DNA of 64,000 nucleotides from Aplysia californica (GCF_000002075.1 NW_004797379.1:697105-761104); one strand, 5' to 3'. Positions 12,175 through 57,118 are shown, counted from the first letter of the stretch. Translations and numbers: made by a program. The notes: generated from the letters alone by a model not told the origin.

Positions 12175-14459
12175 TTAAAAAACTGGAATAAAAAAAGGAT
12201 TTCAAAATGTTGGGCGTAGAACATCTGAACAGTTAGCCTTTAACTTACTTCTTCAGTTACTCAGAATTCTTCAAAATAATAAACGTTCAAAAACAAAAAA
12301 CGAAAGAAGCCATAGCTTCCAGATCTGGCAAAAATATCTAACCACAAAACAGAGACAAAGCACAAAGATAAAATGGATATGTGCTCCTTCAGAGTTGGCT
12401 TCTTTTTTTTTTTAATACTCAAAACAACAAAAAGTATTTAAATTTGATCTCGATGATCGTAGTAACAATATTCTGGTGGCGAAAAAGTCTGTAAAATCGA
12501 AAAAAATCTTTTACATAGAAACAGTAACATTTATAAGGAATGTAAGCATATTGATCTAAGTCTCATGACAAAAAATCTACATTAAACCATTCAGGCACTT
12601 CATTGAGAAGGGTAGGCATTACGAACCATTATGCATAGAAAAAAAACACAAAATGAAGGTCATAAAACAACATGGGTTAAAAAAATGAAACAGTAGGATA
12701 AATAATTCATCACACAGTGACAACACCACATGGAGTGCACATAAGGCCATTGTTTGATCTGTCAACACTAATAATTAATAATAAACTACATTTGTATAGC
12801 CCCTATCCACTCTCTTTAGCATGCTATATTCACTTTACAACTATTGTTATCCCAGCAAACCCGAGAACACTCAGAAAGATTCTCGATTTTCACAGAAGCA
12901 GCCCTTCCCCAAAAATTGTACCGGCTCAAATACTAAAAAACTGATTTTTTTGCCATCAACAGCCAAGTATCCATTCTCACCTGGGCGAAATAAGGACGTT
13001 TATTGTACAAAATGCCTTTCCCAAGGACATAACGTCGGGCCCCCTACAAAGGTTTGAACCGGTAACCTTTCAATTACAAGTGTGTATGCCTAACCACCTG
13101 AACCATCAATCCCACAATTTACACAGGTCAAGCCAATTCATCACTCGAGGAGGAAGTTCTTGCTTCTTTCATCATCATCATGATCATCATCATCATCATC
13201 GTCAGCATGATCAAATATAGTGACAGTGATAGCAATCCTACAATGATAGCAGACGCACCCGGAACGAAGCACTGACAGGATCTCCCCATCGCTCCAGTGG
13301 CTAACTGAGTAGTGAGTTTCGACTCAAGCAATGTCAAGCAAGTGTCGGTGACACGGGGATCAGATGGGTGGTCACTGGGGTGTGTCCTTGAGCAAGACAC
13401 GACAACCCTAGCTAAAAAATACAAGGCGCTGCACAGTGGCCACCGACAGTGGCATTGTTTGTAAACTGTTCTGTATTTGTGTAATAGTGTGTATTTATGT
13501 ATGTATTTATGCATGTATGTATTTATGTATGTACGTATTTGTAATTATGTATTTATGTATGTATGTTTGCCATGGTAAAACAAAGTGCCCTTCAGGGACA
13601 AATAAAAGTGTAATTTATTATTATTATTATTATCATATTATCACAACTAACATCGTCCAACACGCCCTCTTCTATTCTTAGCAGCGAACACTGGGGTATC
13701 TTTCTTGTCTGACTCTCTCACATGAAAGGAACTTTCGGTCTAACATTGTGGTGAACCTTTTAAAAAAGAAGGTACTTACTTCTTACGTGTGTGGTTTGAC
13801 TTGATTCAAAATTGGCCCATATTCGGTGGGATAGAAGGGGAGGGTAGGGGAGGGGAGGGTTTTTTCTCAGACTGTCACACTCCTGACCCAAGAGCCGGTA
13901 AGATTGAGTCTTTTTTAGTTTTAGTAGAGGTTCTACGGCGCTCGCAACTGCATAAGGTCATATGAGCATCAGAGATTGAGTCTAAAAGTAGGATGGAGTC
14001 TAATCTTCTCAAGAAAGTATAAAATATATGTCGACACAAGGTCCACCTGCTAAGCAAGAGAAAAACACCTTTGTAGCTGAAAGATGGAGAAAAGCGGGAT
14101 GCCGAGGGAAAAACTCGATACCCAAACGTAACATTCGCACTTTCTAAAAATCTTTTCAAAAATGACCTTCAGTATTACAATCAGTTAGCTCAAACACAGA
14201 AACTTGGGACATGATAACATGTTTTTTCTTACACTCTTGTGGCATCACCTCTACCCACAAAAAGAAAAAAAAATCCCTTTCATTTTATCGCATATTCATA
14301 CCCATATTTTTCTAACAGGCACCATCAGAAAATTACAAAGGCGCAAAGACCATCCACACACACACAAGTTTCCATAAAGCACCTGTTCAAATAGTGAGCA
14401 TCCCCAGCAAAATCATCGGAGCCAAACAAACAAACAAACAACAACCGAGATAACAAAAT

Positions 14460-14645
14460 CTACACAGACAGGCTGCCATCGCGGAAGTTTGTCTTGCCGA
14501 TCAGGGTATTGATGAGCACGCTCTTGCCCTTGCGAGACTCTTCCACCGCGCTGCGCAGCACCTTTTCAATCTCGTCTTCGTTGGTGCGATCCAGGCGCAT
14601 GCCTTTGCCTCCGAGGCCTTCCGCTGAAGCTTCGTAGTCGCAGAA
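14460..14645 (-). CDS. ILVBL: ILVBL exon 16 (last)
   Basis: FCDYEAS...[11 protein letters not shown] acceptor. Confidence 0.93.
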   Translation of the reverse strand, partial: FCDYEASAEGLGGKGMRLDRTNEDEIEKVLRSAVEESRKGKSVLINTLIGKTNFRDGSLSV

Positions 14646-53322: not shown

Positions 53323-56300
53323 GTTTGGGGGGGGGGGGGGGTGTTGTTGGTGGTTGTTGTTTTTTTCTATCCAAGTTGAAAAATGTTATTTAAGCAACCA
53401 TTTACGCGATGAGAACATCATAGATAAATGTATATTTTAAAACTCCCATCTCTCTCTCGCTTCTGTATTGGATGACGAGCAGGCTGCGGCAACACGTTCA
53501 CGGCCAAGAGCAGTTGGTACGTCCACCTGAAGAAGCACGACGACTCGGGCAAGACCATCGTCTACCACTGCCCCATGGAGAAATGTGAGCGCCACTACGT
53601 CAGCAAAGCCAGTCTGAGACAGCACATTCTTGTCAAGCATTGCTCAGTGCCACAAAGTGAGTGCCTTGTTTTCTACATTTGGACTGAATTTTTTTTTCTT
53701 CCCCCAAATAGTTAGGGGGTCTCTTCTAAATTAAGCTTGGGGGGGGGGGGATTAAATTTTATTTCCCCCTTATGTGTCTTATCTTACTTTTTTCCCAACA
53801 TTGACTGACCGTTTTGTATTGATGAGCTCCTCTTTGCTCAAACAAACGTGTAGGGCTGAATCTGTCATTGAATTATGTTGAGATTAAGGTTTAGTCAGAT
53901 ATTACGCAAATTGTCTGATTTCTACCCAACTTCAGGCCGATCGTCACAAAAATAATATTAATACAAGTTGTATTAGGCAATATGATCTGTAAACTTTGAG
54001 TCCCTACGTATGCGTGTTCAGGGGGTCGAGAAAGTTCAGAGGTTTTGTGCATAAACCATTAGGCACATCTGGGCAGAGTCCACCGTTGAATTTTCAAGGA
54101 GAATTTTTAAATGCTGCACAATTTTTATAAAAAAATAATTTTAAAAACTCATTCTTTTCTTGTGCGTCCACAGAGTCGTCAAGCAACCAGGGAATGGTCA
54201 ACTGGCTGAGTCTGCTGGAGCCGGGAGACGGCAGCTCTGACGTCAGTCTGGCCCAGGATGGATTTACGAGCGCTGAAGGTAACGCATGCTTCCCCTGGAG
54301 TTGAGATTGTTTCTGATTGCAATCAGTTCTGTGGGGGGTAAAAATAGTGTAAAACAGGGTTCGTACGGGTCTTGGAAAAGTGGAATACTCTTGGAATGTT
54401 TTTTTATTTTCCAAGACATGGAAAACTAGGAATTTTTGGGACATTGGCAAAAGTTTTGGGAAAACAAATGTAACTAGATGTGTTGTAAAAATATTTCCTC
54501 GAAGTTTCGAAGGCGTTGACTCTACGCATTCTGAAGTGCACCGTAATGTATATTTGCATGCTGAACAAAAAATATTTTTCCTCAATGACACGTTATTTGT
54601 CTTGGAAAAAAGAAGTCTGGTCTTGAAAGCTCCTGGAGAAGTCTTGGGGAGAAAAAAATCCTGCTCAGTATGAACCCTGGTAAATTGTAAATCACATAGA
54701 GCTTGCTGTTGAGCGGGATTTTTGTTATACAAATGCTATTTGTTAGTGTTAGATCGGTGGGGGTAACAAAGATATAAATTGTAAAACACACAAAGCTTGC
54801 TGTTGAGAGGGAATTTTCTCTAAACAAATGCTAATTATTAGTATTATATCAGTTAGGACTAGAGATTTTTTGAGGCATACACTTTAGCAAATAGCGGTGT
54901 CTGGTCTCTCCTTAGACTTACTTTATTCCTGTCCCTCTTACTTTTTCCCCACGGCTAAATGACCAGTTTTGTGTCAACGTGTTTCTTTTTTATCAAAGTA
55001 GGAGTGGTGTTTAATGTAGGGAACACATCGCTTCTTCTTCCGTTATTGTTAGATCTGTACTCTACCTAATGCTCTGTTTGTTAGAGTGGGTGGTTGGCGG
55101 ATGCTCTGGTGTGGTTTGCCTTTTCTTTCCTAATTTCCTATCAAACATCTATCGTCCCTATCTCTCCTCCTTTTTTTGTGTTTGTTACTCTCTTGTAACA
55201 GTTCTAATCTTCGGCACTCATATGACCTTATTGTGTTGCAAGTACCGTAAAACTTTTACTAAAACTAAACTGTTTGTTAGCTTATGGCACTTCTCTTTCT
55301 TCCAGGTGTGGACCAGTCGTCTGTGAATTCTAGTCAGGACTCGATGCTCGCTGCTGATTTTTTAACAGGGAGTGAGTATTTATCTATTTCACATTATTTT
55401 ATTTTTATTGACCCTTAGCAAACTTCATTCTTTCCCAACTAGACTATTTTATCCTCCATGACCAAGCCATTTTTGCCTCTCTAGCTGTAATCGATGAAGA
55501 TAAGTTTTCTTCTCAAATTTTTAGTGGGTGGTTTGCAGGTGTTTAGTTATGGTTTGCTCCTTCTTTCCTGTCGAACATCTATCATCTTTATATCTCCTCA
55601 GGTATGATAGGGATGTTTTTTTCTGGAAGGGACTTTTTTTTTAATTACAAATTTTACCCTGAGGGTAACCTCCGCCTATTCTTCAATGGTTAGAACATAA
55701 CAGCATCAAGCTATTCAAATGTACTAATCTCAGAAAGTAAATTTTTTCCAGGAGAGGTAAATTCTGTATCATTCTTTTTACAGCTATACCTACATTGAGT
55801 GCCTTTTCTATCTTTTATCAGCATTTAGAAATTGAATTTCAACAGAATGTTTCTTCTTTCTTCTTCTTTCCTGTCGAACGTCTATCTTCCTTATCTCCCC
55901 TCCTTCTATTTTTATGTTTGTTACTCTCTTATAACACCTCAAATCTTCGGCACTTATATGACCTTATTGTGTTGCAAGTGCCGTAAAACCTCTACTAAAA
56001 CTANNNNNNNNNNNNNNNNNNNNNNNNNNNNNNNNNNNNNNNNNNNNNNNNNNNNNNNNNNNNNNNNNNNNNNNNNNNNNNNNNNNNNNNNNNNNNNNNN
56101 NNNTTTTGCATGAATTTTCCAGCAGAAATGCGTCAAGCTTAAGTTGTAAAGTTTATATCTTATGCTGGGGGATGGTTTTAGTTTTATTAGTTTTAACTGG
56201 CCTTAGGACTGGAATGTATTCATTTGCATTCTATCATTACATCTATCGTCCTTTTTTGTGTTTGTTACTCACTTGTGACACCTCTAATCTTCGGCACTTT

Positions 56301-57118
56301 TATGACCTTATTGTGTTGTTGCAAGTGCCGTAAAACGCTGACTAATACTAAAACTAAATATCAAACTTTGTTTCTTTCTCCTCCCCCATCCCCTGCCCCC
56401 TTCCAGATGCCCCCACCCGGGCTGCAAGAAGGTGTTCTTCTCCTCCAGGCTCCTTCTTTCCTATCCAAAATCTACCGTCCTGATCTCTCCTCTTCCTTTT
56501 TTTGTGTTAGTTACGCGCTTGTAACAGCTCTAATCTTCGGCACTTATAATAGGACCTTATTGTGTTGTTGCAAGTGCCGTAAAACTATTTCTTTAAAAAA
56601 AAAAATCTGTCCTGATCTCTCCTCCTTTTTTGTGTTTGCTACTCCCTTGTAACACCTCTAATCTTCGGCACTTACTAAAACTAAATATCAAACTTTGTTT
56701 CTTCCTCCCCCCAGATGCCCCCACCCGGGCTGCGAGAAAGTGTTCTTCTCCTCTAGCTGTATGGGCTCCCACATGCGCGTGCACCAGCAGAGCGTGGAGG
56801 ATCTGCGCTGCAAGTTCCCCGGCTGCGGCAAAATTTTTGCCCGCATGTGCCGACTGAAGCAGCACGAGAGACTGCACACCGGGGAGAAACCGTTTATTTG
56901 TGATTACGAGGTACGTCGAGAACGCTTTTTCTGAGACGGCAACGAGTTGTCTGCGTATTCTAGAGTCTGTTGGGTTGATGATATAAGATTGTAATGTGCA
57001 TAGAGCCTGCTTTTGAGTTGGGATGTGTTTTGTACAAATTAGGGTATTTTATTCTTTTAAAAAATTATTATTATCTATCTTACAAGTGTTTTAGTTGAGC
57101 TTAGCTGCTAAGTTCTTT

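Follow-up and report, generated by a model that had tools for sequence, protein, structure and literature searches.

The orientation of short retroposons relative to their host genes was analysed in Aplysia californica, in and beyond a window (the whole stretch of DNA analysed, 64,000 nt; NW_004797379.1:697105-761104, in a genome of 927 Mb) that holds two neighbouring genes on opposite strands. Two retroposon families, A and B, lie almost exclusively in the sense orientation of both genes. The sense bias is real, genome-wide, unusually strong and linked to gene class: A events were 101 sense to 4 antisense in housekeeping genes and 10:8 in neuronal-channel genes (Fisher p 1.5e-5). The evidence narrows the cause of the bias. 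The preferred reading, to which we give a probability of about 0.55, is that insertion of A and B is favoured in broadly transcribed genes along the direction of transcription and that antisense copies are purged in addition. The genes of the window and the elements in them are as follows.

14460..37551, minus strand: ILVBL/HACL2 gene, 16 coding exons, located by tblastn of the Aplysia californica HACL2 protein (P0001) with near-100% identity per exon
37552..38678, no strand: gap separating the ILVBL and ZXD-like start codons, a putative bidirectional promoter
38679..58039, plus strand: ZXD-like C2H2 zinc-finger gene, located by tblastn of gastropod homologues (P0121-P0125)
13912..34896, minus strand: 18 sense A/B pieces in or just 3' of ILVBL (nhmmer), at 13912, 15067, 16028, 20942, 22405, 23727, 23838, 24018, 24323, 26633 (B), 27115, 27335, 27517, 29415, 29478 (B), 30997, 31740 and 34717
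35086..35270, plus strand: the sole antisense A copy, full-length with a target-site duplication (TSD), in ILVBL intron 1
44228..61500, plus strand: 17 A/B pieces, all sense, in the region of the ZXD-like gene

A profile-HMM scan (nhmmer) of positions 13,900-37,551 found 18 A/B pieces on the minus strand and one on the plus strand. Positions 38,679-56,685 held 12 plus and no minus pieces, and extension to 61,600 gave 17:0, so that 35 pieces in the window were sense and one antisense (binomial p 1e-9). When adjacent pieces were merged into events, the ratios were 12:1 in ILVBL and 14:0 in the ZXD-like gene. The sequence-only reading of this DNA had placed nearly all copies in ILVBL on the minus strand with a single plus exception, which agrees with the 18:1 found here (the plus copy being 35086-35270). 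Its placement of the ZXD copies on the plus strand also stood, but the minus-strand A/B tail fragment that it reported at 41086 proved to be the 3' end of a family D short interspersed nuclear element (SINE), so the ZXD-like gene has no antisense A/B copy. It had further stated that orientation flips exactly with the host gene strand and had put the switch at the bidirectional promoter; the flip is confirmed, but 'exactly' goes too far, the position being bracketed only by 34,896 and 44,228, a distance of 9.3 kb that contains both start codons. Pieces at 59405-61500 probably lie in the intron after ZXD-like exon 57863. Two copies that border 100-N gaps, 44229-44324 and 55860-56003, have private variants in common; probably the assembly contains a single copy twice, which is hence counted twice. 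The A copies at 15885-16201 and 20559-21117, 5 kb apart, have different 5' flanks but a common 3' flank, which belongs to an older repeat and is 92-96% identical between them; this pair (16028/20942) may reflect local duplication or 3' transduction and would then be non-independent.

Profiles were built from 30 genomic copies for A and from three window copies for B, and the control families C and D were profiled likewise. Reference copies in the window are given below.

20942..21117, minus strand: full-length A copy of 176 nt, with GTGGGT start, pyrimidine-rich body, 3' hairpin and TACTAAAAC tail
26633..27046, minus strand: full-length B copy of ~415 nt, with hairpin and tail as in A, and a TSD
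41082..41568, minus strand: family D SINE with (ACAAA)n-type end, antisense in the ZXD-like gene
36586-37020: second D copy, sense in ILVBL
17715..57038, both strands: eight copies of the tRNA-headed C-type SINE, of which 6 are sense and 2 (26356, 49036) are antisense

By their sequence, A and B are classed as short non-autonomous retroposons; their 3' hairpin is that of a reverse transcriptase (RT)/RNase H long interspersed nuclear element (LINE) of the Aplysia genome. A is ~175 nt long, began with GTGGGT in 72 of 88 scored copies, and ends in the hairpin, which distinguishes two A subfamilies, followed by TACTAAAAC repeats of the (ACTAAA)n type. Most copies start at positions 1-5 and the remainder are 5'-truncated. 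Its body is pyrimidine-rich in sense and purine-rich in antisense, and AG dinucleotides number 1-2 on the former strand and 24-25 on the latter; the sense count of 1 compares with 5.3 in shuffled sequence (p 0.015). Antisense copies begin with TTTTAGTAAG, as had been read from the sequence earlier. B (~415 nt) has 19 AGs in sense. TSDs were found in 62/172 full-length A, 11/20 B and 11/29 D copies (a few assignments may be false), mostly 11-13 nt long in A, and the first-nick site of A shows a weak A preference only, with no target consensus. Variable TSDs, a LINE-like 3' end, terminal short repeats and 5' truncations are thus all present in A and B, as in LINE-mobilised non-autonomous retroposons; the presence of TSDs and the lack of a target consensus differ from the reverse-splicing retrohoming of group II introns, where no TSD is made and the target is defined. 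The branch-point sequence as a DNA target of A was ruled out, the motif being absent from reconstructed empty sites. The A and B profiles, by reading, contained no tRNA-derived head with RNA polymerase III A/B boxes and had no credible Rfam match, and A, B and D matched no snoRNA family; an Rfam scan of 20,000-42,000 returned six weak simple-repeat matches. C and D have tRNA-like heads by reading; ARAGORN, which is insensitive to SINE heads, found no tRNA in the window. D is a tRNA-headed SINE of ~490 nt, with a 3' hairpin common with A/B and an (ACAAA)n-type end; its antisense strand holds 62 AGs and 2 GTRAG. The whole-element fold of A is unremarkable (z -1.6). Extrapolation from 34 copies in 400 kb gives ~79,000 copies of A in the genome.

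Gene spans elsewhere in the genome were picked by Pfam exon matches, blind to the elements, with SNF2 spans extended ~3 kb beyond the last match. The housekeeping set comprised 60 stretches (453 kb without N) of CCT, aminoacyl-tRNA synthetase, DEAD, SNF2 and USP genes, the neuronal set 40 stretches (299 kb) of Cys-loop receptor and Ion_trans genes, and the arbitrary set 40 stretches of 10 kb (318 kb); 'housekeeping' and 'neuronal' are gene-family labels, not measures of germline expression. The expectation that the bias reaches beyond the window, and is not near 1:1, was borne out in these independent housekeeping stretches, where the 101:4 divides into 45:0 and 56:4 in two separate sets. Arbitrary DNA held 11 plus and 23 minus A events. 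With B and stubs added, the counts were 129:11 in housekeeping and 14:10 in neuronal genes, and B on its own was 15:2 despite its 19 sense AGs. Sense copies of A were 6.7-fold denser in housekeeping than in neuronal genes (p 7e-13). The antisense rate ratio was 0.33 (p 0.076; p 0.51 for A, B and stubs together), which is no significant deficit. Sense exceeded antisense in 30 of 42 contigs, with 4 reversed and 8 tied or empty. Since the bias holds both more than 500 nt from known exons (83:9) and within 500 nt (52:2 in housekeeping vs 1:3 in neuronal genes), an artefact of exon distance is not the cause. An annotation-free comparison gave a T-rich flank on the element's own strand for 24/29 A copies in arbitrary DNA, 7/12 C copies and 9/15 D copies. 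The sense strands of housekeeping genes are T-rich (T/A 1.25-1.28), and base composition cannot explain the sense bias because this, with the weak A preference at the target, pushes the other way. The control families were 13:7 (D) and 13:5 (C) in housekeeping genes and 11:3 and 7:4 in neuronal genes; together they show a general sense lean of ~2:1 (44:19, p 0.002). In the window, the statement that 'CORE-type' SINEs of the same introns occur in both orientations held for the C-type copies.

The orientation of copies placed where splicing should purge little bears on whether insertion or selection is responsible. Downstream of the last known exon the ratio was 28:5 in 20 housekeeping stretches. 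It was 12:1 in the 11 of them in which the last exon closes the reading frame, and 16:2 at distances above 3 kb. Body-less stubs were 20:5 as pieces (p 0.004) and 13:5 as events (p 0.096). Because the bias persists in both places, insertion itself is likely biased, by ~4-6:1. Selection against the purine-rich antisense body probably contributes as well, since stubs and flanks (~3-6:1) lie well below the 110:1 of body-bearing A (vs 20:5 in stubs, p 8e-4). The sequence-only reading had proposed, as one option, purging of antisense copies that present a cryptic acceptor overlapping a donor-like GTAAG. The TTTTAG/GTAAG motif alone is not the target of purging, because stubs also carry it and yet are antisense in 5/25 cases, compared with 1/111 for body-bearing copies. 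It had also offered transcription-coupled insertion and purging as alternatives; both seem to act, so that each part finds support and the either/or framing does not. Nor is purging alone sufficient, given the 6.7-fold sense excess without a significant antisense deficit and the 28:5 in 3' flanks. Its proposed check by copy age showed no growth of the bias with age (A sense:antisense 33:1, 30:0 and 42:2 by age class), although even the youngest class is probably fixed. D is present at 16.5 per 100 kb 3' of housekeeping genes and at 4.4 in their introns (3.7-fold, p 9e-5; L291-L310), and is 2.6-fold denser 3' of these genes than in arbitrary DNA; this density in flanks and thinness in introns indicates that strong purging from introns is possible in the Aplysia genome.

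Sense copies also cluster at splice sites; the sequence-only reading had remarked neither on this nor on the role of gene class or the partner LINE. Among housekeeping genes, a sense copy ends within 100 nt of 17 of 98 acceptors, a density of 187 vs 29 per 100 kb (p 3e-7; ~6-fold within 100 nt). A sense copy starts within 100 nt of 10 of 117 donors, in three of them within 5 nt (91 vs 17 per 100 kb, p 2e-4). These counts derive from 142 exon matches, from which 44 without a usable acceptor and 25 without a usable donor were excluded. In the window, 8/29 acceptors and 3/27 donors have a nearby sense copy, as listed here.

27498..27695, minus strand: A copy whose tail ends ~20 nt ahead of the acceptor of exon 27497, with ACTAA adenines at -13, -19 and -25 and no YTRAY in the examined stretch
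29401..29889, minus strand: B copy followed by a tail stub, the end lying 15 nt ahead of the acceptor of exon 29400
22372..22548, minus strand: truncated A copy ending 34 nt ahead of the acceptor of exon 22371
45827..46032, plus strand: A copy that takes up the greater part of a 289-nt ZXD intron, leaving 83 nt on the donor side and 32 nt on the acceptor side, with a tail YTRAY at -37
44228..44378, plus strand: A copy ending 55 nt ahead of acceptor 44379 and probably identical with 55860-56003
48394..48593, plus strand: 5'-truncated B copy ending 43 nt ahead of acceptor 48594
55086..55305, plus strand: A copy with TSD ending 39 nt ahead of acceptor 55306
56239..56714, plus strand: three A pieces with duplicated tail, acceptor and start of exon 56715, the last piece ending 41 nt ahead of the acceptor
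24018..24089, minus strand: A piece starting 8 nt after donor 24098
27335-27374, minus strand: A piece that begins 8 nt past donor 27383

In 9/25 acceptor cases an adenine of ACTAA is found 13-44 nt ahead of the AG, and this distance is the usual branch-point range. By its sequence and position, the ACTAA tail can be regarded as a candidate stand-in branch point. Elsewhere, the start of an A copy lies 0, 1 or 5 nt downstream of a predicted donor (L192, L112 and L179, respectively); in L192 and L112 the 5' splice site would be provided by the GT of the element itself. The TSDs in L177 and L116 appear to span or abut the acceptor AG. Copies near splice sites are older, with median divergences of 0.127 and 0.150 (n=7 and 6) vs 0.084 (n=66; p 0.026).

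Under the preferred reading of guided insertion followed by purging, the LINE machinery would reach open, germline-transcribed chromatin, and the first nick of A/B would fall mostly on the template strand, as sense insertion requires, giving ~4-6:1. Antisense A, with its TTTTAG and a purine-rich body of 24-25 AGs, would be a poison-exon candidate, and its purging would raise the ratio in introns to ~25:1. Sense A (GT start, 1-2 AGs, ACTAA tail) would be nearly invisible to the spliceosome; beside splice sites it may replace a branch point or donor and may then be protected from deletion. A transcription-linked junction of single strand and duplex, at an R-loop or a head-on fork, is the most economical guess for the strand-specific nick.

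Several results weigh against this reading. D has a LINE hairpin in common with A/B and so is probably moved by the same enzyme, yet it reaches only 13:7 in housekeeping introns, 11:7 in 3' flanks and 35:17 over all gene-linked sets, and the difference in orientation between A/B and D in 3' flanks is not significant (p 0.085). The 3' flanks lack annotation, and long untranslated regions, further exons or tandem genes may lie there. Given the 2:1 lean of C and D, ordinary selection may account for some of the bias in stubs and flanks. The lack of an age trend is weak evidence, the youngest class probably being fixed as well. The excess at splice sites is significant among old copies (8/30, p 4e-5) and not among young ones (3/28, p 0.13); together with the greater age of near-site copies, this means that retention explains at least part of the splice-site peak. 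An annotation-free acceptor score gave a smaller excess (22/109 vs 14% at random). De novo insertions of the Drosophila I element, in the available portion of PMC10018349, were without strand bias.

The strongest competitor, possible although clearly less probable, holds that insertion into open chromatin of active genes is strand-neutral and that weak but efficient selection purges nearly all antisense A and both orientations of D from highly expressed genes, sense A alone being invisible to splicing. The contrast between 1-2 sense and 24-25 antisense AGs in A, the far stronger bias of body-bearing copies than of stubs, and the 3.7-fold greater density of D 3' of housekeeping genes than in introns all agree with it. 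Selection would nevertheless have to remove ~96% of antisense copies, even more than 500 nt from exons, while antisense A persists in neuronal genes (8/18) and antisense D, with its 62 AGs and 2 GTRAG, persists in housekeeping introns (7/20). The 28:5 past the last exon, with 16:2 beyond 3 kb, and the 15:2 of B with 19 sense AGs are likewise difficult for it.

A more specific and doubtful proposal is that A is an intron-mimicking retroposon: promoterless, made from host pre-mRNA, carried by the splicing machinery to germline-transcribed genes, primed by its LINE partner on the template strand near exon edges, re-transcribed there, and supplying splice signals for about one sixth of housekeeping introns. 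A does resemble an intron in its donor-like GTGGGT start, its avoidance of AG and its branch-point-like UACUAA end. RNA reads over 8 kb of the window (two poly(A) runs, two contig sets) gave near-zero depth on ILVBL exons. Those on the element derive from the whole family, and 78-79% continue into unlike sequence; no pile of read starts was seen at the 5' end of A in these family-wide reads of the two runs, and no reads fell on the copies next to acceptors.

It is improbable that replication sets the strand, through a LINE that nicks one template strand at forks whose direction is fixed relative to housekeeping genes, with replication starting at the bidirectional promoter. Human L1 favours lagging-strand templates, with a 5'-overhang junction ~10 bp from the nick, according to the available portion of PMC10830416; TSDs of 11-13 nt in A and the extension of the bias past gene ends fit such a scheme. 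By our reasoning, however, forks co-directional with transcription would yield antisense insertions under the L1 rule, and the splice-site peaks and the weak bias of D are unexplained. The strand blocks switch within 10 kb across 264 kb of contig, with a mixed gene-poor left flank. At the level of single genes, a ratio of 25:1 is more than fork polarity would be expected to produce. Exon prediction de novo was insensitive across the 264 kb, and a plus-strand block at L285 showed no clear exon.

Local copying, by tandem or segmental duplication or by cis retrotransposition from the host intron, was rejected by kinship analysis as the main cause of the same-strand runs and is very improbable in that role: the closest relative lies in the same gene for 17/99 copies vs 7 expected (p 0.0045), with common flanks in several pairs, and 12 of 73 copies with a TSD are located within or next to an older A copy, whose orientation they always match, but shared derived changes reveal no general within-gene kinship (p 0.76), only ~5-6 local pairs occur among the 99 copies, flanks are unique for most copies, 62/172 full-length A have their own TSD, and the bias is repeated in 30/42 contigs. 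It explains about a tenth, and the refuting condition named in the sequence-only reading, same-strand clusters explained by tandem duplication, does not hold.

The machinery available to A and B was sought among LINEs of the genome. The open reading frame of LINE L308 encodes an RVT_1 domain (E 3e-16) followed by RNase_H (E 1e-10). A young LINE family is ~50% identical to L308 over the C-terminal 131 aa and has many copies with identical score and open frames of up to 1226 aa. Six of its copies (L311-L316) have a 3' hairpin that hardly differs from the one in A2, B and D; the common hairpin has 10 pairs, with a compensatory change in 2 pairs. By the resemblance of these hairpins, the young RT/RNase H LINE is likely the partner of A2, B and D. 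Its 3' termini are (ACT)n or (ATAC)n. L308, L317 and L318 form a second, more distant family by their 3' hairpin. The partner is a putative Nimb/I-clade LINE; an RT followed by RNase H, as in L308, is what ORF2 of that clade contains. Thirty RNase H loci considered as the partner belong to other LINE families, and a search for the partner with PF07530 gave no match. Another LINE family (C-terminus as in L247 and L257) has left 3' fragments at 21243-21554 and 22796-23140, in ILVBL introns and in opposite orientations.

Further features of the window concern its genes and assembly. One ILVBL/HACL2 exon matched the A. californica protein over 59 residues at 100% identity. In protein order, the ZXD-like exons are 38679, 40880, 42114, 42563, 43666, 56715, 57863, 53485, 54174, 55306, 44379, 45616, 46033, 47788 and 48594; exons 54174 and 44379 were positioned by reading, without a protein match. 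Comparison with the gastropod homologues shows that the assembly order disagrees with this order. The disorder lies around 100-N gaps and element copies at 43851-58039, where the assembly appears to be misjoined at A copies. At 56350-56760 an element tail, the acceptor and the first ~40 nt of exon 56715 are duplicated, which yields a decoy acceptor and a partial exon at 56405. A minus-strand exon of 470 codons without a Pfam match lies at 2167-3664, with a B copy ending just ahead of its likely acceptor. TCTAGA-type palindrome runs occur at 63585-63905, near the window end, and at 37040-37370 in ILVBL intron 1. Neighbouring genes on the contig include a LIX1 exon (plus, L281:2784-2945) and an ELO elongase exon (minus, L284:3380-3505).

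Reports on other systems, compared here through the available portions of each source, allow A and B to be placed. Mollusc SINEs with Nimb/I-type LINE partners have been described, including LINE-promoter (LP) SINEs and some without a tRNA head, and bivalve SINEs accumulate in genic regions (PMC4758252, PMC11481361). A and B resemble them in being short and non-autonomous, with variable TSDs, a LINE-derived 3' end, terminal short repeats and modules common between families. The GTGGGT/G-run head of A is unlike theirs, and A and B are absent from the Aplysia families named there; the main texts of the two papers do not report orientation relative to host genes. LP SINEs are marked by ~70 nt at the head that are homologous to the 5' UTR of a Nimb LINE; a motif search covering all but one of the supplement files of PMC4758252 found no match. 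In dog introns, antisense copies of SINEs (SINEC_Cf) and LINEs are commoner and density falls near exons (bioRxiv 10.1101/2020.10.27.358119), so that A runs counter to the mammalian rule. Orientation and density in introns vary with gene strand and exon distance in both cases, but A is sense at ~25:1 in housekeeping genes, with a ~6-fold peak within 100 nt of acceptors. snoRNA retroposons are promoterless retrocopies, often sense in introns and expressible by host transcription (PMC1687206). A likewise lies sense in introns; unlike them, it has no snoRNA match, has tens of thousands of copies and has no guide function in evidence. L1 strand choice in humans follows replication-fork architecture (PMC10830416), and de novo insertions of the Drosophila I element favour active promoters (PMC10018349). 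Target-primed LINE insertion, in which DNA architecture can set the nicked strand, is common to these and to A/B, whose bias tracks gene strand and gene class, unlike that of L1 (fork) and the I element (no strand bias). No prior report of the sense bias was found in the literature searched, which did not include Repbase and subscription journals, where a prior description is possible.

Whether insertion or selection produces the orientation bias of intronic retroelements has long been asked, and the cases documented in animals are modestly antisense. A is at ~25:1 in housekeeping and ~1:1 in neuronal genes, and a sister family that shares its LINE tail serves as an internal control. The partner LINE is young and apparently intact in a laboratory animal, which makes the question of insertion or selection directly testable. 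If insertion is strand-guided, this would be a mode of targeting without precedent in the literature searched. Either way, A marks the direction of genes and reshapes the neighbourhoods of splice sites across the Aplysia genome.

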